64,000 nucleotides of DNA from Candidatus Eiseniibacteriota bacterium (GCA_041946735.1 JBHGAY010000005.1:118048-182047); one strand, 5' to 3'; positions 1 through 11,101 are shown, counted from the first letter of the stretch. Numbers and translations are program-made. Notes: a model not told the origin generated them from the letters alone.

Positions 1-688
1 CGTCCTCGCGCGCGAGGCGCTGGGAGGCGAGGTAGGCCACGCGCTCCGCGAGGTCCTGCGGAACGACGATCACGCCGTCCGGGTCACCGTAGACCAGGTC
101 GCCCGGACGGACCGGAACCGGTCCTTCGATCCCGGACAGCGCGATCGGCTGCTGGTAGTCGACGATCTGCCAGCGCCCGAAGGCGTCGATCGGCTGGGCT
201 CCGCGGCAGAAGACGGGGAAGCGGTCCTCCTCGAGGCGCCGCGCGTCGCGCGTCCACCCATCGACGACCGCTCCGGTCGCGCCGAACTTGCGGGCCAGCC
301 TCCCGCTGATATCGCCGAAGTGGGCTACGGACGCGTCGCCCCCCGCGTCGATCACCTGCACGCAGCCGGGGGTGAAGGAGCGGAACATGCGGATGCGCAC
401 GGTGTCGTCGACGTGACGCTCGTCCAAGACGCGAGCGCCGGTGCAGGTGAAGGCGGGACCGAAGAGGATCGCGCCGCGTGGCAGCGACCAGAGCGGCTTG
501 ACCGCCGCATGCACGACGAACGGCCGCGGCCAGTTGAGATCGAAGCGGAGGGCGTCGTAGATCACCCCCGCGTAGAGGCCGGCGTAAGCGTCGCGCAGAT
601 CGCTCCGTTCCAGGACATCGACCGCCGGTTTCGGTTTCGGCTGTGGCTTGGACTCCCGCCTCGATTCCGGCTCCAGAATTGGCTCCAC
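1..688 (-). CDS. RraA-family / HMG-CHA aldolase-like protein (3' end runs off the window)
   Basis: Missing from the ORF track because there is no stop in the window. Manual translation from GTG at 688 (GGAGGA upstream) gives ...YAGVIYDAL...GPAFT...VIDAGGDASVAHFGDISGRLARKFGATGAVVDGWTRDA...FPVFCRG...VRPGDLVYGDPDGVIVVP, the RraA-fold pattern. Confidence 0.85.
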   Translation of the reverse strand, partial: MEPILEPESRRESKPQPKPKPAVDVLERSDLRDAYAGLYAGVIYDALRFDLNWPRPFVVHAAVKPLWSLPRGAILFGPAFTCTGARVLDERHVDDTVRIRMFRSFTPGCVQVIDAGGDASVAHFGDISGRLARKFGATGAVVDGWTRDARRLEEDRFPVFCRGAQPIDAFGRWQIVDYQQPIALSGIEGPVPVRPGDLVYGDPDGVIVVPQDLAERVAYLASQRLARED

Positions 689-734
689 GGCATCCTCCTC
701 CCCGCGACGCGGGTCGCTCCCGCGGCGGACCTCA

Positions 735-750
735 AGCAAGAAGCCTGCCG
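735..750 (-). promoter_or_regulatory. Putative sigma-54 (-24/-12) promoter of the RraA-like gene
   Basis: Minus strand reads CGGCAGGCTTCTTGCT: GG-N10-GC, close to the TGGCACG-N4-TTGCW consensus, ~45 nt upstream of the start codon. Confidence 0.45.
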
Positions 751-858
751 GGGTGGGCGAGGACGCTAAGTGCCTTGAAAGCGCCCGATAAGGGTCGGCG
801 GGGGGGTGGCCCGGTTCGGCCCGATGGGCGGAAGGACTTGCCGCGACAGCGGCCGCGG

Positions 859-2703
859 TTACCGCCCCGCGCCCGCCCGGGCGGGATCCGAAGCCGGCGC
901 CTGCGCCCAGCGCGGCGGAGCGTCGGGGCGGATCGGGATCGAGTCGGGGATCACCTCGCCGCCGATGGCTTCCTTCGCCTCGCGGAGGAGCGAGCGCACC
1001 TCTTCTCCTTCGGCCGATCGGAAGGTCGCTGCGGTCAGGCCGGACATCAGCGCGCGCTCCATCCGCTGCAACGTGCGGCGTTGCGCCTCGACCTCCTTGC
1101 GCGCCGGCCGCCGCCGGCCTCCCGGATCGCGGATCTTCTCGATCCAGGCGCGCATCTCAGCCCTCGCCGAGTCCGGATCGAGGGGCAGGACGTCGAACCG
1201 TCCCGGCGCGCTGCGATACTCGTGATCGAACTCCTGGGACCACGCATAGCGCCAGGGACCGGGCTCCTCCGGATGGAAGCGAATCGTCCAGCGGTAATCG
1301 CCCTCGTAGCTCGCGAGCAGATCCCATCTTCGTCCGCTGGGCGACTGGAACGTCCAACGCACCTTCTGCTTCTCGGGAGCCGCGGTCCGGATCCAGGTGT
1401 CGCGCAGCTCCGCTTCGAAATCGCCGCCGAGCGGAATGGGATCGACGGCGGCGAGGATGCGCGCCTGCAAGCGGCGCGCTCCGGCGCAATCCCACAGCGG
1501 CTCGCGATGCCAGGCGGTGGCCCTGGCGCTGGTGGCGGTGGCGGCGAGGTCGGCCGCCATCGTTTCGCCACCTGCCGTCCGTATCTCGACGGTCGCGCGC
1601 GGCGAGCCGGGGTCGGGAAGCCACGTGCAGGCGATGCGCGCCGCGCCCGCCGCGAGATCGAGTTCCGGCAGGGCGAGCACGCGTCCCGGTTCCAGCCGCA
1701 CCGCCTGCTCGATGCGAGCCACCTCGCCGGGCGCCTCCCATTCCAGCTCGAGTCGCGGGCGCCGGGCCACGTTGCGAGAGTCCCCCTCGTTGGCCGAATA
1801 GAGGGTGACGACACTGCCCGGCGTGTCTTCCTCGACGTCCCCGACCTTCAACAGGAAGAGGAGCGGACGGCCGGCCGCGATCCGGCGCGTTGCGCAGGAC
1901 GCGAGCCCGGCGGAGTCGAAGATGACCCGCGAAGCGCCGGGGACGTACACCGCGTCCGCGAGCGGCATCGCGCCGGTGTCGGCCTGCCGATCGGTGTCAG
2001 AGGCGTAGCCCGCGCCGGGAAGGGCCCAGGCCTCCTCGCCGAAGGCGGCGTCGTTCCACCACACCTCGCCGGGGCGTGGGGGGCTCACGTTGTCTCCGAG
2101 CGTCCCGCCGCCGCCCGTTCGATAGTCCCTCTTCATCTCATAGAGAACGAGGCGCACGCTGTCGGCCGGGCCGCTCTCGACGCCGATCGTGAGCGTCCCG
2201 CGCGTTACGATCGCCCCCGGCGGCAGCTCGATCCCCTCCCAGCGCTGCACGACGCGGAACAGCTCGTACTCCCCGTACGCTTCGCTCCCGTCGCGGCGCC
2301 CGACCCGCACGTGCACCTGTCGCGCCTGGTTCCACGCATGCTTGTACGTTCCGTCGAGGAACCCTCGCAGATCGTTGTCTTCCATCCCGGAATAGGTAGG
2401 GCCGTCGACGAATGTGAAAACGTGGCGCTGCGAGAGGACGCTCCTCGCGCCGCCTCGGGCGTCGCCGGCTCCGCCGGCGAAAGCGGAGACGCGAAGCGTC
2501 CCGGAGAAGGGGGCGGACAGCGCCACGTCGGAGCGAAACGGTTCGATCTCCATCCGGCGAAGCAGGCGGCGGCCGGCGAGGAAGGCGCCGCCGGCGAGCG
2601 CGAGCGCAAGCGCGAGAAGCGCGAGGGCGAGAAGCGGGCGACGGATGGGGAGCAAGCGGTTTCGGCCCGGTCTGCCGCCGGGCGCGCGAGCCGTGACGGA
2701 CAA
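859..2703 (-). CDS. Membrane-anchored hypothetical protein with DNRLRE-like and DUF5060-like domains
   Basis: Likely TTG start at 2703 after GAGGAGG. N-terminal hydrophobic anchor. 'YSANEGDSRNVARRPRLELEW' resembles the end of a DNRLRE domain; 'FQSPSGRRW...YEGDYRWTIRFHPEEPGPWRY' resembles DUF5060. Confidence 0.6.
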   Translation of the reverse strand: MSVTARAPGGRPGRNRLLPIRRPLLALALLALALALAGGAFLAGRRLLRRMEIEPFRSDVALSAPFSGTLRVSAFAGGAGDARGGARSVLSQRHVFTFVDGPTYSGMEDNDLRGFLDGTYKHAWNQARQVHVRVGRRDGSEAYGEYELFRVVQRWEGIELPPGAIVTRGTLTIGVESGPADSVRLVLYEMKRDYRTGGGGTLGDNVSPPRPGEVWWNDAAFGEEAWALPGAGYASDTDRQADTGAMPLADAVYVPGASRVIFDSAGLASCATRRIAAGRPLLFLLKVGDVEEDTPGSVVTLYSANEGDSRNVARRPRLELEWEAPGEVARIEQAVRLEPGRVLALPELDLAAGAARIACTWLPDPGSPRATVEIRTAGGETMAADLAATATSARATAWHREPLWDCAGARRLQARILAAVDPIPLGGDFEAELRDTWIRTAAPEKQKVRWTFQSPSGRRWDLLASYEGDYRWTIRFHPEEPGPWRYAWSQEFDHEYRSAPGRFDVLPLDPDSARAEMRAWIEKIRDPGGRRRPARKEVEAQRRTLQRMERALMSGLTAATFRSAEGEEVRSLLREAKEAIGGEVIPDSIPIRPDAPPRWAQAPASDPARAGAGR

Positions 2704-5164: not shown

Positions 5165-5384
5165 CCCCCGGCCATGGGTGGCTGGGACAGCGACGCGACC
5201 GGCGCCCCGCCGCGCTCACGTAGAGCCGTTCGGGGCCAGGCGAGAGACGTGTCTTTCGCCGCCCTGTCGCCTGCATGCGGGGGACCGATGCGAAGAATGG
5301 AGGCTTGGGCGATCGCGGCAATCGCCCTTTTCCTCGAAGCCAGGCGTCGAGGACCGGGTTACAATCCCTTTCCCGGAGGTGACG

Positions 5385-6581
5385 ATGCAGCAATCGCAGC
5401 GGCAGGCATCCCAGGTGCGTACCGGACTCGACGTCGTCCTGCGCGATGGGATCGGCCTTCCCGGCGAAGGCCGGGCGGGACTGTTGTGCAATAGCGCGGC
5501 CACCGACCGGCTCCTGCGCGCGACCCCGCAGGCGCTCGCGCAGGTCCGCGGCCTCCGGCTCATCAGGATCTTCTCGCCGCAGCACGGATTCGCCGGCGAG
5601 AAGCAGGACAACATGGTCGAGTCGCCCGACGCGACGCACGAGCCGACCAGCTTGCCGATCGTGAGCCTCTACGGCCGCGTCCGCCGGCCGGAACCGGCGA
5701 TGCTCGACGACCTTGACGCAGTGATCGTCGATCTTCCCGACGTCGGCACGCGCGTCTACACGTTCCTGACGACCGCTCTCTACATGCTCCGCGCGTGCGC
5801 CGAAGCGGGCGTGGCGGTGATCGTCCTCGACCGGCCCAATCCGATCGGAGGCGATGCTGTCGAAGGCCCCATGCTCGAGGCCGGTTTCACCTCGTTCGTC
5901 GGGGAGATCCCGATCCCGCTGCGCCATGGCCTGACGCCGGGCGAGTTTCTCCGCCTCGGCGCGCGGGCGCTCGATCTCGAGCCGGCGCTCGATCTCACCG
6001 TCATCCCGATGGAGGGATGGCGCCGCGACCTCTGGTTCGACGAAACGGGGCTGACCTGGGTCATGCCCTCTCCGAACCTTCCGACCCTCGAGAGCACCGT
6101 CGTCTACCCGGGCCAGGTGCTGCTCGAGGGCACGACCCTCTCCGAAGGGCGCGGGACGACCCGGCCGTTCGAGCTTTGGGGCGCCCCGTGGCTCGACACG
6201 CGGGCGGTCGCCAACGCGATCGGCCCGCTGGAGGGCTGCCTGCTGCGCGAGGTCGCCTTCGAGCCGACCTTCCAGAAGCACGCGGGGCAGTTGGTGCGCG
6301 GCTTCCAGATCCACGTGACGGACCGCGACCGCTATCGCCCGGTGCGCACCACCGTCGCGCTCCTCGCCGCCGTGCGCTCGATCCATCCGGAAAGGAAGCT
6401 CTGGCGCGAGCCGCCCTACGAGTACGAGACGAAGCGGATGCCGATCGACCTCATCAGCGGGAGCGATCGGCTGCGGGCGGCGATCGACGCCGGCGCTTCC
6501 GTCGACGACATCGCCGGCCGTTGGGACGAGCAGGTCGCGGCGTTCCGCGAGCGGCGGCAGGGCTTCCTCCTCTACGAATGA
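5385..6581 (+). CDS. namZ: Exo-beta-N-acetylmuramidase NamZ (DUF1343 family)
   Basis: VRTGLD, FSPQHG, SLYG, DLPDVGTRVYTF, DRPNPIGG, RHGLTPGE, PSPNLPT, SEGRGTTRPFE motifs; ATG at 5385 after GGAGGTGA; no signal peptide. Confidence 0.92.
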   Translation: MQQSQRQASQVRTGLDVVLRDGIGLPGEGRAGLLCNSAATDRLLRATPQALAQVRGLRLIRIFSPQHGFAGEKQDNMVESPDATHEPTSLPIVSLYGRVRRPEPAMLDDLDAVIVDLPDVGTRVYTFLTTALYMLRACAEAGVAVIVLDRPNPIGGDAVEGPMLEAGFTSFVGEIPIPLRHGLTPGEFLRLGARALDLEPALDLTVIPMEGWRRDLWFDETGLTWVMPSPNLPTLESTVVYPGQVLLEGTTLSEGRGTTRPFELWGAPWLDTRAVANAIGPLEGCLLREVAFEPTFQKHAGQLVRGFQIHVTDRDRYRPVRTTVALLAAVRSIHPERKLWREPPYEYETKRMPIDLISGSDRLRAAIDAGASVDDIAGRWDEQVAAFRERRQGFLLYE

Positions 6582-8626
6582 GCGAAGAACGGCCAGGAAG
6601 GAGCGAAGAACGGCCAGGAAGGAGCGAAGCCGGGCTGCCCCGCTCCGCTCCGGCGCTCGACCGCCACGGCGCGCCCCTCCGCGCGATCGTGCTCGCCGCG
6701 GGATTCGGCACGCGGATGCTCCCGCTCACACGCACGATGCCGAAGGCGCTCCTCCCGGTCGCCGGCCGGCCGCTGCTCGAATGGACGCTGCGCCTCCTCG
6801 CCCGTTCCGGCATCGACGAGGCCGTCGTGAACGCTCACCATCATGCCGCGGCGATCCGCGGCTGGATCGAGCAACGGCGCGGCGATCCGCGGCTCCCCCG
6901 CGTGGACGTCGTCGTCGAGGAGCCGGAGATCCTCGGTTCGGCGGGCGGCATCGCAAACGCCGCCGCTCTCGGGCTGCTGCAGTCCGACCCGATCGTCGTC
7001 GCGAACTCCGACCAGATCCTCCGCGTCGATCTCCGCGCGGTCCTCGCCCGGCACCTGGAGCGCGGGGCGATCGCGACGCTCGTCTGCTCTCCGCATCCGC
7101 TGCTGCGCCAGGTCCGAGTCGCCGGCGAGCGCGTGACGGAGATCCTTCCCTATCCGATGCCGACCGGCCAGTCGCTCTACAGCTTCACCGGGATCTGGCT
7201 CCTCGCGCGCGAAGGGCTCGAGGAGCTGCCCCGTGGCCGCTTCGAGGAGATCGGACCGCACTGGCGGCGATGGGTTGCGGCCGATCGCGTCGCGGCCGTC
7301 GTCGTGAAGGATGCGCCGTTCCGGGAAGCGGGGACCCCCGAGGCCTGGCTCGAGGTCGAGCGCGCCGTCGGCCGGCTTCGCGAGGAGCCGCCGGCGATCG
7401 AGGAATCGATCGTCCTGCCCGGAGCGAGCGTCGCTCCGGGAGCGCGCGTGCGTCGCTCGATCCTCGGTCCGGACGCCGTCCTGTCGGCGGGCGAGCAATG
7501 CTACCGGCGGATCGTGGCGGCCGGCGAGTCGCGCGCGCTGCGCGTGCTTTCGCGCGACGAAGAGGAGGCGCTGCGTGCGGTGCTCGAACGGTCGCGGGGG
7601 AAGCTGCCGGTCGTCGCGCGAACGCCGGCGTTCGGGATCCGCCTGCTCGCCGGGGACGGATCGAACCGGCGCTTCGCGCGCCTGCTCTTCGAGCGCGGGA
7701 GCCTGGTCGCCATCTTGAATCCACCGGGGGGGGCGCCGCCGGCTTCGGTCTATCCGCATCGCGAGACCGCGGGCGGTCCCGACGAGAACGACAGCTACCT
7801 CTACGTGCAGCGGTTCCTCGCCGCGCGAGGCGTGCGCGTGCCGGCGATCCATGCGTTCGATCGCGAGAGCGGGACGATCCTGCTCGAGGATCTCGGCGAT
7901 CGCCTACTGCTCGAGGAGATCCAAGGCCGGGACGAGGAGGCGCTGAAGGCACACTACCGGCAAGCGCTCGAGATGCTCGAGCGGATGCAGGCGCCGGCGC
8001 CGCCGGCGTTCGACGCGGCGCAGACGTGGAACGTCGCGTACGACGAGGCGTTCGTGCTGCGCTTCGAGGCCGGGTATTTCCATCGGGAAATGGTCGAGTC
8101 GATCGCGGGACTCGCCGTCCCGTTCTCCGAGATGGAGGGGATCTACCGGCGCATCGCGCAGCGGTCGCTGGCAGGCGCTCCGCGGGTCGCGATGCACCGC
8201 GATTTCCAGTCCCGCAACCTGATGATCGTCGAAGGCGGTCTCGCCCTTCTCGACTTGCAGGGGATGCGTCTCGGGCCGCCGGAGTACGACCTCGCCTCGC
8301 TCCTCCTCGATCCGTATGCCGATCTGCCGGCGCGGCTGCGCGAGGAGCTGCTCGAGGAGGCGATCGCCGCGAGCGCGGGGCGGATCGATCGCGGCCGGTT
8401 CGTCGCTTCGGGGATCGACCGGATGATGCAGGCGCTCGGCGCCTACGCGTATCTAGGCGGGCGTCTCGGCAAGCCGGGATTCCTCGAGCACGCGCCGGTC
8501 GCGCTGCGGCGCCTGCGGGAGCTGGCCGAGGAGGCGTCGCTCCCGGAGATGGCGGGACTGGCCGACCGCGTCACCGAGGCGCTCACGCGCCGCGCGCACC
8601 GGGAGCACCGCGCCGAGCCGGCTTAG
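6578..8626 (+). CDS. Fused MurU-like nucleotidyltransferase + AmgK-like sugar kinase (APH family)
   Basis: N-half: LAAGFGTRMLPLT...PKALLPV, NAHH, GSAGG, NSD and a short hexapeptide segment. C-half: LAGDGSNRRFAR, LLEDLGD, HRDFQSRNLM, DLQGMRLGP..YDLASLLLDPY, RMMQALGAY. ATGA overlap with namZ. Confidence 0.85.
   Translation: MSEERPGRSEERPGRSEAGLPRSAPALDRHGAPLRAIVLAAGFGTRMLPLTRTMPKALLPVAGRPLLEWTLRLLARSGIDEAVVNAHHHAAAIRGWIEQRRGDPRLPRVDVVVEEPEILGSAGGIANAAALGLLQSDPIVVANSDQILRVDLRAVLARHLERGAIATLVCSPHPLLRQVRVAGERVTEILPYPMPTGQSLYSFTGIWLLAREGLEELPRGRFEEIGPHWRRWVAADRVAAVVVKDAPFREAGTPEAWLEVERAVGRLREEPPAIEESIVLPGASVAPGARVRRSILGPDAVLSAGEQCYRRIVAAGESRALRVLSRDEEEALRAVLERSRGKLPVVARTPAFGIRLLAGDGSNRRFARLLFERGSLVAILNPPGGAPPASVYPHRETAGGPDENDSYLYVQRFLAARGVRVPAIHAFDRESGTILLEDLGDRLLLEEIQGRDEEALKAHYRQALEMLERMQAPAPPAFDAAQTWNVAYDEAFVLRFEAGYFHREMVESIAGLAVPFSEMEGIYRRIAQRSLAGAPRVAMHRDFQSRNLMIVEGGLALLDLQGMRLGPPEYDLASLLLDPYADLPARLREELLEEAIAASAGRIDRGRFVASGIDRMMQALGAYAYLGGRLGKPGFLEHAPVALRRLRELAEEASLPEMAGLADRVTEALTRRAHREHRAEPA
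6580..6629 (+). repeat. 21-bp tandem duplication (GAGCGAAGAACGGCCAGGAAG x2.4) encoding SEERPGR repeats
   Basis: Read directly from the sequence. Confidence 0.9.
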
Positions 8627-10419
8627 CGGCGGAGGGAGATCTTGCGGGTCGTCTCGATCCCGCCGGCGGCCCCCCGGACGCGGACGAAGTAGATCCCGCT
8701 CGGCACCGGGTTGCCCGCCTCGTTCTCGCCGCGCCAGACGAAGGCGAGCGTTCCGCCGGCGGCGACCGGACCAGCGGTCGCAGCGAGCGAGCGCACGAGC
8801 CGCCCGCTTGCGTCGATGACCTCGACGTCCGCGGACCGCCCGTCTCCCACCGCCGCCGCAGCCCCCGCCGCCATCTCCAGCCGGAGCGTTACTTCGCCGG
8901 CGAACGGGTTCGGGTAGGCGGCGAGGCGGACCGGCGGGCGCAGCGTCGCGTCCGCCACCGAGGCCCCGGAGTCCTGTCGATAGCCGATCGAGAGCAGGTC
9001 CTGCTGCGTGATCCAGGTGTAGCCGTACCCGACCGCGTAGAGGTCGCCGAGCGGGCTTGCGGCGATCGCGGAAACCTCGTCGGTCAGGCCGTCCCCCGAA
9101 TCCCGGATGGACGACCAGGCGATCGAGCCGTCTGCCGGGTCGAAGCCGACGAGGGTCGCGTCCCAACCGGTGGCGGCGGCGCTGCTGAAGCCGCCCGCAA
9201 CGATCTCCCCGGATGCCGCCCCGGAGACGGCGATCGCGGACGCGCCGTCGTAGTCGTGCGCGGGCGCATCCCACAGGGACCGCCACTGCAGCTCGCCATC
9301 GCCACAGGCGAACTTGCACACGAGGAAGTCGCCGCTCTGCACGCCTGCCACGAGGAGGTTGCCGTCGCGATCGCTCGCGGCGGCGCGCGGATTGTCGGAG
9401 ACGGCCCCAGGTGCGCCGTAGCGGGACTGCCAGACGACCTCGCCATCCGACGCATCGAAGCGGAAGGCGACCACGTCGAAGAGGGTGGCCGGCTCCCACA
9501 TCCGGTTCGTGACGAGAGCGTCGTCGTCCGAGCAGAGGAGGATCCATCCGGCCCGCTCGCCGATGTTGTTGACGGCCCCGGGCAGGACCTTCTGCCAGAT
9601 CGTCGTGCCGTCGGCCGAGTCCAGCTTCGCCGTGCAGAAATCGGCGTTGCCGTCCGCGCGTCCGAAGATGCCGGTCAGGACGGGATCGCCGTCGGATCCG
9701 ACGGCGATCGCCCAGGCTGCGTCGTCCTGATGGTCGGCGCCGCCGAGGAGCCTGGTCCAGACGACGTGCCCGTCGGCGGCGTCGAGCTTCATCGCGACGA
9801 CGTCGTCCAGTTCCGATTCGCCGTTGTACATGCGGCCGGTCAGGAAGACGTTGCCGCCGGAGTCGCAGGCGATCGCGTAGACGGATTCGTTCGTTCCGGT
9901 GGGGCTGGCGTAGTGCTGCAACCAGAGAGACTCTCCGGTCTCACCGTCCCGCTTCAGGACGATGATGTCGTCGCCGTGCCCTCACCCGACGCAGCCGCGC
10001 ACGTATCCGCCGACGAGCACGTCGCCGAACGGGTCGAGGACGATCGAGGTGAGCGCCATGTCGTTGCCGTCGGAGGCGAGGTACTCGGCCAGCCAGAGAA
10101 GGCGGCCGTCCTGGCGCGCGAGCCGGCGTACGGACATCGCCGAACCGTTGATGCCATCGCGCGTCTCGCCCCCGACGATCAGGTCGCCGTTGGGGGCGGC
10201 GACGGCGGCGGTCGCGTAGTCGGAGTAGGCGCCTCCGGCGTCGTAGAGGTCCAGCCACTGCTCGGACGGCTCGGCGGCCGCGGCGCGGGAAAGGGGGAGG
10301 GCGAGGACGAGGGCAAGGGCAGCGGCCAAGGCGCAGATGCGGATTGCGGCAGAGGCGGAAGCGGAAGCGGTGGTGGCGGCGGTGGCGACGACGGTGGCGG
10401 GACCGGCGGGTGTCTTCAT
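8623..10419 (-). CDS. Secreted SBBP/PQQ-like beta-propeller protein with FlgD-Ig-like C-terminal domain; one in-frame TGA (codon 146, 9982-9984) in a CxxU motif, candidate selenoprotein (598 aa if read through)
   Basis: ATG at 10419 after AGGAGA, with a signal peptide ending AAAA-E. Track ORFs 9982..10947 and 8623..9921 share one frame and are joined by TGA-GHGDDIIVLKRDGETGESLW, which continues the propeller repeat. Confidence 0.75.
9941..9965 (-). promoter_or_regulatory. Candidate bacterial SECIS hairpin
   Basis: mRNA +17..+41 after the UGA: UCAUCGUCCUG-AAG-CGGGACGGUGA, 11 contiguous pairs (2 G-U), with a G at +27 at the apex. Confidence 0.55.
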
Positions 10420-10720
10420 CGGATCTCCTGCGGCGGCCTTCGAATGCGTCTCGTCTGCCGTGTGCGGCGGCCGGTCGAACCGCGCCGGTCGAACGGCGTC
10501 GATCGAATCGTGTCGATTGTAGCAGGTCGGGACGGCGCCCGGCGACCTCGCGCTGGCTCGCCCGCTTCGAATGCGAGCGGAGGCGAGCCCCTTCCTGGTG
10601 CCTTCCGGACGGTGGGCGGGTATTCTCCCGACGGCGGCCGGGCGCGCCGGGTCAACCGGGCGCACCGGATCGAAGAGGCGCGCGCTGGCAGATCCGGCCC
10701 GGACAAGAGGAGGAGGAGGC

Positions 10721-11101
10721 ATGCCGGCAAGGGCGAAGGCGATCGACCGGACGACGGGAAACGTGGCGCGGGCGGCGAAAGCAGCGAGCGCTATCTCGAT
10801 CCTGATGCTCGCCGCGTTCTTGATCGGAGAACGGGCGAGCTTCTCCGCCCTCACCTGGAAGGACTGGCTGGGCCTCGCCCTGTTCCCGGCCGGCGTCGTC
10901 GCCGGAATGGGGATCGCGTGGTGGCGGGAGATCCTGGGAGGCGCCATAGCCTGCGGGTCGCTCCTCGCCTTCTATCTGATCCACGGGTTGTGGCTGAGCG
11001 GCCGGCTCCCGAACGGGATCTTCTTCGTCCTGTTCGCCTCGCCGGGATTGCTGTTTCTCGTCAACGGCCTGATCCGCTACCGGAGAAGCCGGGGAAGGTA
11101 G
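10721..11101 (+). CDS. Small 4-TM hypothetical membrane protein
   Basis: ATG after a GGAGGAGG run; four hydrophobic segments ('LALFPAGVVAGMGIAWWREILGG'). Confidence 0.75.
   Translation: MPARAKAIDRTTGNVARAAKAASAISILMLAAFLIGERASFSALTWKDWLGLALFPAGVVAGMGIAWWREILGGAIACGSLLAFYLIHGLWLSGRLPNGIFFVLFASPGLLFLVNGLIRYRRSRGR

Follow-up and report, generated by a model that had tools for sequence, protein, structure and literature searches.

A candidate exported selenoprotein family with a beta-propeller fold, a conserved C-x-x-U motif and two hairpins downstream of the UGA

Introduction

Bacterial genes whose selenocysteine (Sec) incorporation depends on SelB and on a selenocysteine insertion sequence (SECIS), such as fdhF, selD and the genes of AhpD-like C-x-x-U proteins, have in common an in-frame UGA, a hairpin within the coding sequence just downstream of it, and the Sec machinery. 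The apical loop of the E. coli fdhF element is found at about +24 from the U of the UGA, and GGUC is a familiar type of SECIS loop. We report here on a gene located at positions 8623 to 10419 (minus strand) of a stretch of 64,000 nucleotides from Candidatus Eiseniibacteriota bacterium (GCA_041946735.1, JBHGAY010000005.1:118048-182047), hereafter called the window. This gene shares the three features just listed but differs from the known cases by its predicted propeller fold, which is new among selenoproteins, and by two hairpins instead of one, with loops at about +29-35 and +54-56 rather than at about +24. In all likelihood it is a genuine, conserved selenoprotein gene of a new family and not a broken gene.

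Other described systems resemble it in part. A C-x-x-U redox-type motif is found in AhpD-like, SelW-like and other families (Table 1 of PMC13188914). The thioredoxin-fold CxxU/UxxC proteins (SelW-like, thioredoxin, DsbA-like, DsbG-like) share with the present product a Cys and a Sec two residues apart, and thus a possible selenenylsulfide; in contrast to them, it has no thioredoxin fold and carries its motif on a loop of an eight-bladed beta-propeller. Some of these thioredoxin-fold families are exported. The eight-bladed fold itself is shared with the BamB, PQQ_2 and SBBP surface propellers, which have neither Sec nor CxxC at this loop, and no functional link to the beta-barrel assembly machinery (BAM) is implied by the likeness. 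SELENBP1/methanethiol oxidase is a beta-propeller with a CxxC motif, linked to selenium and sulfur chemistry, without genetically encoded Sec. We consider this likeness as an analogy only. SBP56 is not among the seven Pfam families that match at E <= 0.1. Finally, type A cargo proteins of the type IX secretion system (T9SS), known from Bacteroidota and their relatives of the Fibrobacterota-Chlorobiota-Bacteroidota (FCB) group, share the succession of a signal peptide (here a predicted one), a passenger and a sorting domain, and PorU and SprA are encoded in the genome studied here.

Nearly all selenoproteins have Cys homologues, according to the main text of a review (PMC13188914), and the propeller family, for which we found none, departs from this rule. 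In the literature we found no relevant report of a bacterial beta-propeller selenoprotein, of a selenoprotein that is a T9SS cargo, or of one associated with SBBP, no report linking selenocysteine with Eisenbacteria, and nothing relevant on selenocysteine in taxa whose names begin with Krumholzibacteri. The main text of the same 2026 review, including its Table 1 of known and predicted families, does not mention propeller, PQQ, FlgD, T9SS, WD40, sorting domain or repeat-containing; propeller, PQQ and FlgD are likewise absent from the main texts of the BSepDB (PMC13326102) and deep-Sep (PMC12013277) papers. The family thus appears undescribed as judged from these main texts, the supplements of which could list further candidates. 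The statement in the original prediction that no characterised selenoprotein has this architecture agrees with this, since no family model, review table or paper matched in the material covered.

Gene organization

The gene is a single minus-strand frame that runs from an ATG (10417-10419) to a TAA (8623-8625) and is interrupted solely by a TGA at 9982-9984 (codon 146). Translated through this codon, it gives a product of 598 residues that opens with a signal-peptide-like segment, continues as a long series of repeats and closes with a C-terminal tail. The context at the TGA is GGYVRGCVG-U-GHGDDIIVLKRDGETGESLW, with Cys143 three residues N-terminal of the TGA; in the read-through product the Sec-site context is GGYVRG-C-V-G-U-G-H-G-D-D-IIVLKRDGETGESLW. 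The open reading frame (ORF) listing cuts the gene into two pieces of this one frame, 9982-10947 and 8623-9921, the latter being listed as an ORF of 432 residues with TTG as start codon. The signal-peptide-like N-terminus is confined to the upstream piece and the FlgD_ig/Por_Secre_tail domain to the downstream one. The original prediction had described two ORFs that share one frame and are split only by this TGA, a signal peptide in the upstream part only, a FlgD-Ig-like tail in the downstream part only, and a TGA exactly three residues after a Cys; the frame, the ORF listing, the family-model matches and the read-through sequence agree with it on all these points. It had also proposed that the TGA be checked against sequencing error. 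In an independent study (run X2, record 10, an industrial-waste metagenome), one contig spans 9708-10419 with 0 differences, meaning that the TGA is not an assembly slip; run X1, possibly the source sample, was left out of this confirmation. The features of the gene are as follows.

8623..10419, minus strand: whole predicted selenoprotein gene, ATG to TAA, 598 residues, Sec146; in alignments of 10 and 12 orthologues the two halves are conserved as a single protein
10425..10429, minus strand: AGGAG, ribosome-binding-site-like motif 5 nt before the ATG, read from the sequence
10273..10419, minus strand: signal-peptide-like region, residues 1-49 (charged start, hydrophobic core, AAA-EP), judged by eye
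8965..10272, minus strand: predicted eight-bladed beta-propeller, residues about 50-485 (Pfam, AlphaFold (AF2) model, VIA-align)
9991..9993, minus strand: codon of Cys143, the invariant partner Cys of C-x-x-U (orthologue alignments)
9982..9984, minus strand: predicted selenocysteine codon TGA, residue 146 (every orthologue found has TGA at the aligned site; independent run)
9941..9965, minus strand: hairpin H1, 11 bp, loop AAG in this genome (folding and covariation)
9920..9940, minus strand: hairpin H2, 9 bp, A-U closed, with a 3-nt loop, GUC here (folding and covariation)
8638..8916, minus strand: T9SS type A sorting domain/FlgD Ig-like tail, residues 502-594 (TIGR04183 and Pfam FlgD_ig)

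Conservation of the TGA codon

When the 41 closest genomes were examined, a full-length orthologue was found in 10 of them (40-49% identity, E <= 4e-118), each with exactly one in-frame TGA. Translation and alignment place the 10 TGAs at a single site, G-[GA]-x-x-x-x-C-x-x-U-x-x-G-D-[DE], and the next-best matches in these genomes (27-32% identity) have no stop. A census of the phylum with query residues 50-260 detected the gene in 12 of 206 genomes, belonging to six families, with a TGA at the site in 12/12; Cys143 and the Sec site are both invariant in the resulting alignment. Residues on both flanks of the TGA are invariant in the 10- and 12-orthologue alignments.

Two larger collections were scanned with two peptide patterns located just 3' of the Sec site. 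The collection holding one genome per prokaryotic species gave 45 loci, of which 42 are orthologues, all with C-x-x-TGA (42/42), and the remaining three are paralogues, 28-30% identical, with neither Cys nor Sec. The taxa, as annotated, are Candidatus Eisenbacteria/Eiseniibacteriota, Krumholzibacteriia/-ota, Latescibacterota, uncultured 'Fibrobacteraceae' and one Gemmatimonadetes. Metagenome contigs gave 41 loci including 39 orthologues, with a TGA in 39/39 (38 C-x-x-U and one C-x-x-x-U). Once pooled, the 102 locus entries correspond to 74 distinct stretches of 141 nt, every one of which contains the TGA; the motif is C-x-x-U in 101/102 entries and C-x-x-x-U in the last one. A word-indexed protein search gave 4 matches, only one of them the downstream fragment itself, and it is uninformative on the spread of the family because tail-domain candidates swamped it. 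The comparison of residue 146 between homologues, which had been proposed from the outset, thus gave TGA in all three surveys and no Trp, Gly, Arg or other sense codon; instead of a TGA unique to one genome and devoid of a conserved hairpin, as a plain nonsense mutation would leave, we found it in 74 distinct sequences together with conserved hairpins (see below).

We also looked for a Cys form. A profile built from the 10 orthologues was searched against 1.84 billion representative proteins, and the best 150 matches were considered. Twenty-two are single-stretch proteins of 293-432 residues that start at profile positions 131-195; since these starts lie past the Sec site (position 122), they are gene calls cut at the TGA. 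The 128 remaining matches are longer, at 648-4154 residues, and each aligns over 3-15 stretches. These best 150 included no full-length single-propeller protein, an informative absence because such a protein would outscore the fragments. After realignment of the stored proteins to the profile, 81 domain alignments covered the Sec state and two of them had Cys at both states, namely the query itself and one repeat of a 2357-residue multi-propeller protein, P0112, in which a C-G-N-C (within residues 231-440) is aligned with the C-x-x-U loop. P0112 was rejected as a Cys orthologue, as its GHGD segment is deleted and its architecture differs; it may be a distant CxxC analogue. Neither the profile search, nor the realigned proteins, nor the orthologue scans provided a Cys orthologue. 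The family therefore appears to be without a Cys counterpart, and Sec appears to be indispensable rather than an improvement on Cys. The original prediction had envisaged homologues with either CxxC or CxxU: TGA is indeed present at the site throughout, but the expected mixture with CxxC forms was not seen. Many propeller paralogues that have the same tail and no TGA are encoded in the source genome.

Selenocysteine machinery

The source genome (G000; 4.89 Mb, 72 contigs, 94.8% complete) encodes a tRNA-Sec (selC, 72 bits, called SeC by ARAGORN with anticodon TCA), selB (349 bits for a cut-off of 242), selA (479 for 268) and selD (388 for 125), the last of which carries its own in-frame TGA. 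The four sel genes, whose presence had been left to be checked, are thus all found in the genome, over the family cut-offs. selA occurs in 183/206 genomes of the phylum (a count that includes the unpublished genome G072) and in 11 of the 12 carriers of the propeller gene, the twelfth (G044) being 81% complete. As selA is so common in the phylum, this co-occurrence fits a selenoprotein but does not discriminate. TGA is otherwise a normal stop and codon 146 the exception, because TGA ends 505 of 863 long frames of the source genome that have a high G+C content at third codon positions (TAG 313, TAA 45) and also terminates the propeller gene itself in three orthologues.

Two known kinds of selenoprotein gene were seen elsewhere in this genome: selD, with Sec in C-A-G-U (contig C2, 108941-109867, minus strand), and the gene of an AhpD/CMD-like selenoprotein with C-E-Y-U (contig C1, near 159134, plus strand).

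RNA hairpins downstream of the TGA

In this genome H1 is an 11-bp stem with a 3-nt AAG loop, at +17..+41 after the TGA, and the 9-bp H2 directly adjoins it. A 76-nt piece around the TGA folds at -35 kcal/mol, compared with a mean of -26.4 for shuffled sequences (z -2.85; 1/200 shuffles as good). The 11-bp hairpin at +17..+41 had been noticed before, and folding confirms it. The accompanying view of a single SECIS-like hairpin held in part: the hairpin is conserved with compensatory changes, but there are two hairpins and neither has its loop at about +24.

Covariation was studied with 43 distinct sequences of 81 nt from the TGA, and columns are numbered along that alignment. The family consensus of H1 has 8 bp (columns 21-28 with 36-43) and a 7-nt loop. 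Its pair 22-42 is formed by G-C 22 times, by A-U 15 times and by G-U 5 times; an Ile/Val/Thr codon begins at column 22, and a Gly/Asp codon ends at column 42. Since a first codon base is thereby linked to the third base of another codon, this covariation goes beyond protein constraint. H2 pairs columns 45-53 with 57-65, with 98.7% of the cells paired and double changes at 4 pairs; its loop is GUC here and GGU or GUU in relatives, with an A-U closing pair. For H1 and H2 together, 95.9% of the cells are paired and double changes occur at 7 pairs (25 cells), whereas slid controls pair at 36-56% and none of 500 shuffles reaches any of five measures. Synonymous codon identity, counted among sequence pairs sharing an amino acid, is 0.74 over the 22 codons after the UGA versus 0.48 elsewhere in the gene, with a gene-wide peak (0.80-0.84) over H1 and H2.

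The TGA-less paralogues provide a control for H2. It is missing in 6/6 of those encoding the same peptide, D-G-[AE]-T-G-E-[VL]-L-W, which use GTC, GTG or CTG and whose 21-nt fold is worth -3.7 to -7.6 kcal/mol versus -10.8 for the H2 of the window. The selenoprotein family nearly always has the rare GTT, the T of which pairs with the A of GAG (A-U in 41/43). As the paralogues encode the same peptide without H2 while the family keeps GTT, H2 is selected as RNA. One of the controls is located in the window itself, at about 43,700 on the minus strand, where D-G-A-T-G-E-L-L-W is written with other codons.

Some sequences of the family permit a shifted register of H1 with a UGAA tetraloop. H1 is preferred over an alternative hairpin, formed by columns 13-17 with 23-27, because the latter shows a single double-change cell. 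In selD (GGA) and in a second T9SS-tailed selenoprotein family of the same genome (GGUC, A-U closed; see Export), the apical loop is at about +24 from the U of the UGA. We consider two models of SelB binding for the propeller gene: H1 could be the SECIS and H2 an accessory, or H1 could be a folded spacer that presents H2.

The geometry of the hairpins is what speaks for a read-through of the UGA without selenium, in which they would stimulate near-cognate suppression (by Trp, Cys, Gly or Arg) or another recoding event: unlike in selD and the second family, neither loop is at about +24, and the H1 loop (UGAAGCU or AAG) is unlike the GGUC type. If a standard residue were inserted, however, a switch to a sense codon would be expected, and it is seen in 0/74 distinct orthologous sequences. 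In addition, the site belongs to a Gly-rich loop with an invariant Cys three residues before it, which is a classic Sec context, the Sec machinery is complete here and nearly universal in the phylum, and the apex of H2 (A-GGU/GUC-U) is similar to the loop found in the second family (A-GGUC-U). We therefore regard a selenium-free read-through as very unlikely, and Sec insertion at codon 146 as the better explanation of the conserved TGA.

Protein fold and the C-x-x-U loop

Looking at the read-through product with Pfam, we obtained PQQ_2 (BamB-like propeller) at 47.1 bits (cut-off 27.6), a borderline SBBP (20.7 for 20.5), FlgD_ig at 35.8 (cut-off 27) and Por_Secre_tail at 19.6 (cut-off 27). The nine NCBIfam matches (release 20.0) are all partial, to propeller or tail; only the TIGR04183 tail is over its cut-off, and no selenoprotein family model of this release is. 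A partial match to the Leptospira LipL53 family (NF047494) reaches 43.6 bits, far below the cut-off of 400. An AlphaFold (AF2) model computed from the 10-sequence alignment (predicted local distance difference test (pLDDT) 79.6, predicted template modelling score (pTM) 0.73) has 32 strands forming eight four-stranded blades, followed by a beta-sandwich tail. VIA-align gives Z scores of 30-37 to eight-bladed WD40 (up to 36.7) and BamB (30-32) propellers, and Foldseek matches to CylK and BamB. An assignment of function from the fold was abandoned, as the structure searches return generic propellers only (CylK, BamB, WD40, and tetrathionate hydrolase with Z 27.6).

In the model the C-x-x-U loop connects strands 134-141 and 152-157, which are the second and third of blade 2, in agreement with the inter-strand loop initially proposed for the TGA. 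There is no thioredoxin fold around the motif, which sits in a propeller blade, and no thioredoxin-like family was matched in Pfam or NCBIfam. Cys143 and Sec146 are the only invariant thiol/selenol residues in the orthologue alignments. Conservation along the protein is highest in the stretch right after the TGA, GHGDDIIVLK; the G-D-D there is found again in other blades and is probably structural. The residue two places after Sec is H in 64 of the 102 entries, Q in 28, E in 5, S in 3, A in 1 and N in 1.

These data bear on whether the locus makes two products, translation stopping at the UGA to give a 145-residue secreted fragment while a second protein starts downstream, for example at the TTG at 9921. 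Gene callers do yield this split, the 22 representatives among the best 150 database matches start past the TGA, and the 432-residue downstream ORF begins at that TTG. The TGA, however, splits a propeller blade between two strands, just before the most conserved stretch; the upstream piece would hold fewer than two of the eight blades, the downstream piece has no signal peptide despite its secretion tail, and the varying starts of the database fragments (profile positions 131-195) mean that there is no conserved restart codon. Two separate products are thus highly improbable. The probability that an ordinary SBBP propeller gene was hit by a chance nonsense mutation, or that the TGA arose during sequencing or assembly, is close to negligible in spite of the many TGA-less paralogues with the same tail in the genome: 74 distinct sequences from several candidate phyla share this codon at this site, both halves are conserved at the protein level, and an independent metagenome contains the identical TGA.

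Export

The C-terminal tail matches TIGR04183, the T9SS type A sorting domain, at 24.7 bits (cut-off 23), and dozens of other loci in the source genome match the same tail. The genome encodes PorU (596 bits for a cut-off of 420) and SprA (356 + 128 bits for 200), which makes export by the T9SS likely. At the other end of the protein, the orthologues have shorter, canonical hydrophobic leaders ending with A-x-A, and AlphaFold gives a lone helix (14-43) here. The protein is probably exported to the cell surface, and the sequence features suggest that the most likely route would be from the Sec translocon to the periplasm and then through the T9SS to the surface or the medium.

Outside the window, contig C38 of the same genome holds at 125-2065 (plus strand), with a TGA at 704-706 (locus L104), a gene of another selenoprotein family with a T9SS tail, the second of this kind. 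The product would be a 646-residue secreted protein with the motif V-G-C-U-G-E; Por_Secre_tail alone is recognised by Pfam and NCBIfam. The motif of its relatives is D-C-U-G-[AG]-[TS]-E-x-A-E-V-S-A-D-D. The 41 related genomes contain 25 matches to this family, several per genome, each with one in-frame TGA, and its SECIS is canonical, with a 7-bp stem and a GGUC loop at about +24.

Discussion

Altogether, these data make it highly likely that the gene encodes one exported selenoprotein of 598 residues, the founder of an undescribed family. The secreted or surface propeller containing Sec that was first put forward is supported by the conserved TGA, the covarying hairpins, the machinery and the T9SS tail. 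The recoding mechanism is a known one; the fold, the destination and the two-hairpin element are unusual. In the mechanism that we propose, SelB carrying Sec-tRNA would dock on the hairpin module, and Sec would be inserted while the ribosome holds the UGA. The signal peptide would take the pre-protein across the inner membrane, the pre-protein would fold as an eight-bladed propeller, and the T9SS would recognise the C-terminal domain and deliver the protein to the cell surface or the medium. Cys143 and Sec146 would be carried by a Gly-rich loop, G-C-x-G-U-G-[HQ]-G-D-D, which joins the second strand of blade 2 to the third. From its chemistry, the Cys143-Sec146 pair is best read as a selenenylsulfide-forming redox centre, which could cycle between the selenolate/thiol and selenenylsulfide states and act on an extracellular or periplasmic oxidant or chalcogen compound. 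The alternative is that the pair would bind a soft metal or metalloid.

Several observations weigh against this reading. We infer the selenium in the polypeptide, and the catalytic role of the propeller is a proposal. The hairpin geometry is unusual, neither loop being at about +24 as in the two other selenoprotein genes compared here: the H1 loop occupies columns 29-35 (UGAAGCU, or AAG in this genome) and contains no GGU, and the H2 apex is GGUC-like (A-GGU-U, A-GUU-U; A-GUC-U here) but its loop is at columns 54-56. The hairpin of columns 13-17 and 23-27, mutually exclusive with H1, is 87% pairable, with one double-change cell. A divergent Cys form could escape both collection scans, as their peptide patterns lie inside the SECIS-encoding stretch. 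The confidence of the model at the C-x-x-U loop is low (pLDDT 57 for residues 141-150), and a fixed metal-ligand triad is made less plausible by the variation seen two places after Sec. Concerning export, the PorV-like protein reaches 111 bits for a cut-off of 250, and the N-terminus, which is signal-peptide-like, was judged by eye to be a Sec-type signal peptide. Finally, the gene neighbours are not conserved, so that the context gives no functional support.

A more ambitious view, which we put forward as a tentative and rather doubtful one, is that of the first obligately Sec-dependent family of T9SS-exported enzymes, with a Cys-x-x-Sec on the face of a propeller performing extracellular redox or chalcogen chemistry, and with a bipartite SECIS in which H1 would be a structured spacer and H2 would bind SelB. 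If so, a chemistry beyond the capacity of cysteine would explain the lack of a Cys form, and SelB would be bound by H2, whose A-GGU-U apex is like the canonical A-GGUC-U, at a site some 30 nt downstream of the usual one. Taken with the second T9SS-tailed family, such a case would suggest that Eisenbacteria, Krumholzibacteriota, Latescibacterota and their relatives possess an extracellular selenoproteome that has gone unrecognised.

Current annotation misses the family because gene callers split the gene at the UGA in every genome. It would add to the bacterial selenoproteome a fold, the eight-bladed propeller, and a destination, that of a T9SS cargo delivered to the surface or the medium. A rare family without a Cys counterpart is a good test of selenium versus sulfur chemistry outside the reducing cytoplasm, and the two-hairpin element lends itself to the question of the distance from the UGA over which a bacterial SECIS still works. 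The selenium demand of these uncultured phyla from soil, sediment and wastewater may also bear on culturing them.

Gene neighbourhood

In the window the gene is accompanied by genes for NamZ, an NTP_transferase and APH fusion, DUF7670, PMT_2 and asparagine synthase, none of which recurs beside 44 orthologous loci. The NamZ exo-muramidase (5178-6581) and, after it, the fused NTP_transferase and APH-type kinase lie within 5178-8626 (plus strand); the fusion gene is convergent to the selenoprotein gene, the stop codons overlapping at 8623-8626, and resembles the MurU/AmgK pair of cell-wall recycling. As the neighbours vary across six regions of 14-18 kb, no operon partner can be named. When the ORFs flanking the 44 loci were clustered, the only recurrent one was a cytochrome b561-like ORF located upstream (7/44), a possible electron-transfer link in one lineage only. 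This ORF is found at 6470-8458 (plus strand) of L098, where it encodes a 663-residue fusion of a multihaem cytochrome c7/c3 with cytochrome b561, and in the first 500-580 bases of L065, L066, L068, L071, L073, L079 and L082.

At single loci, thioredoxin-like, disulfide-isomerase, AhpD-like or rhodanese genes are present nearby. Large Peptidase_C25 (gingipain/PorU-like) proteins with FlgD_ig tails are encoded a few kb from the selenoprotein gene in 3/6 inspected regions (L100, 10933-13599; L101, 11048-15985; L103, 11269-15123).

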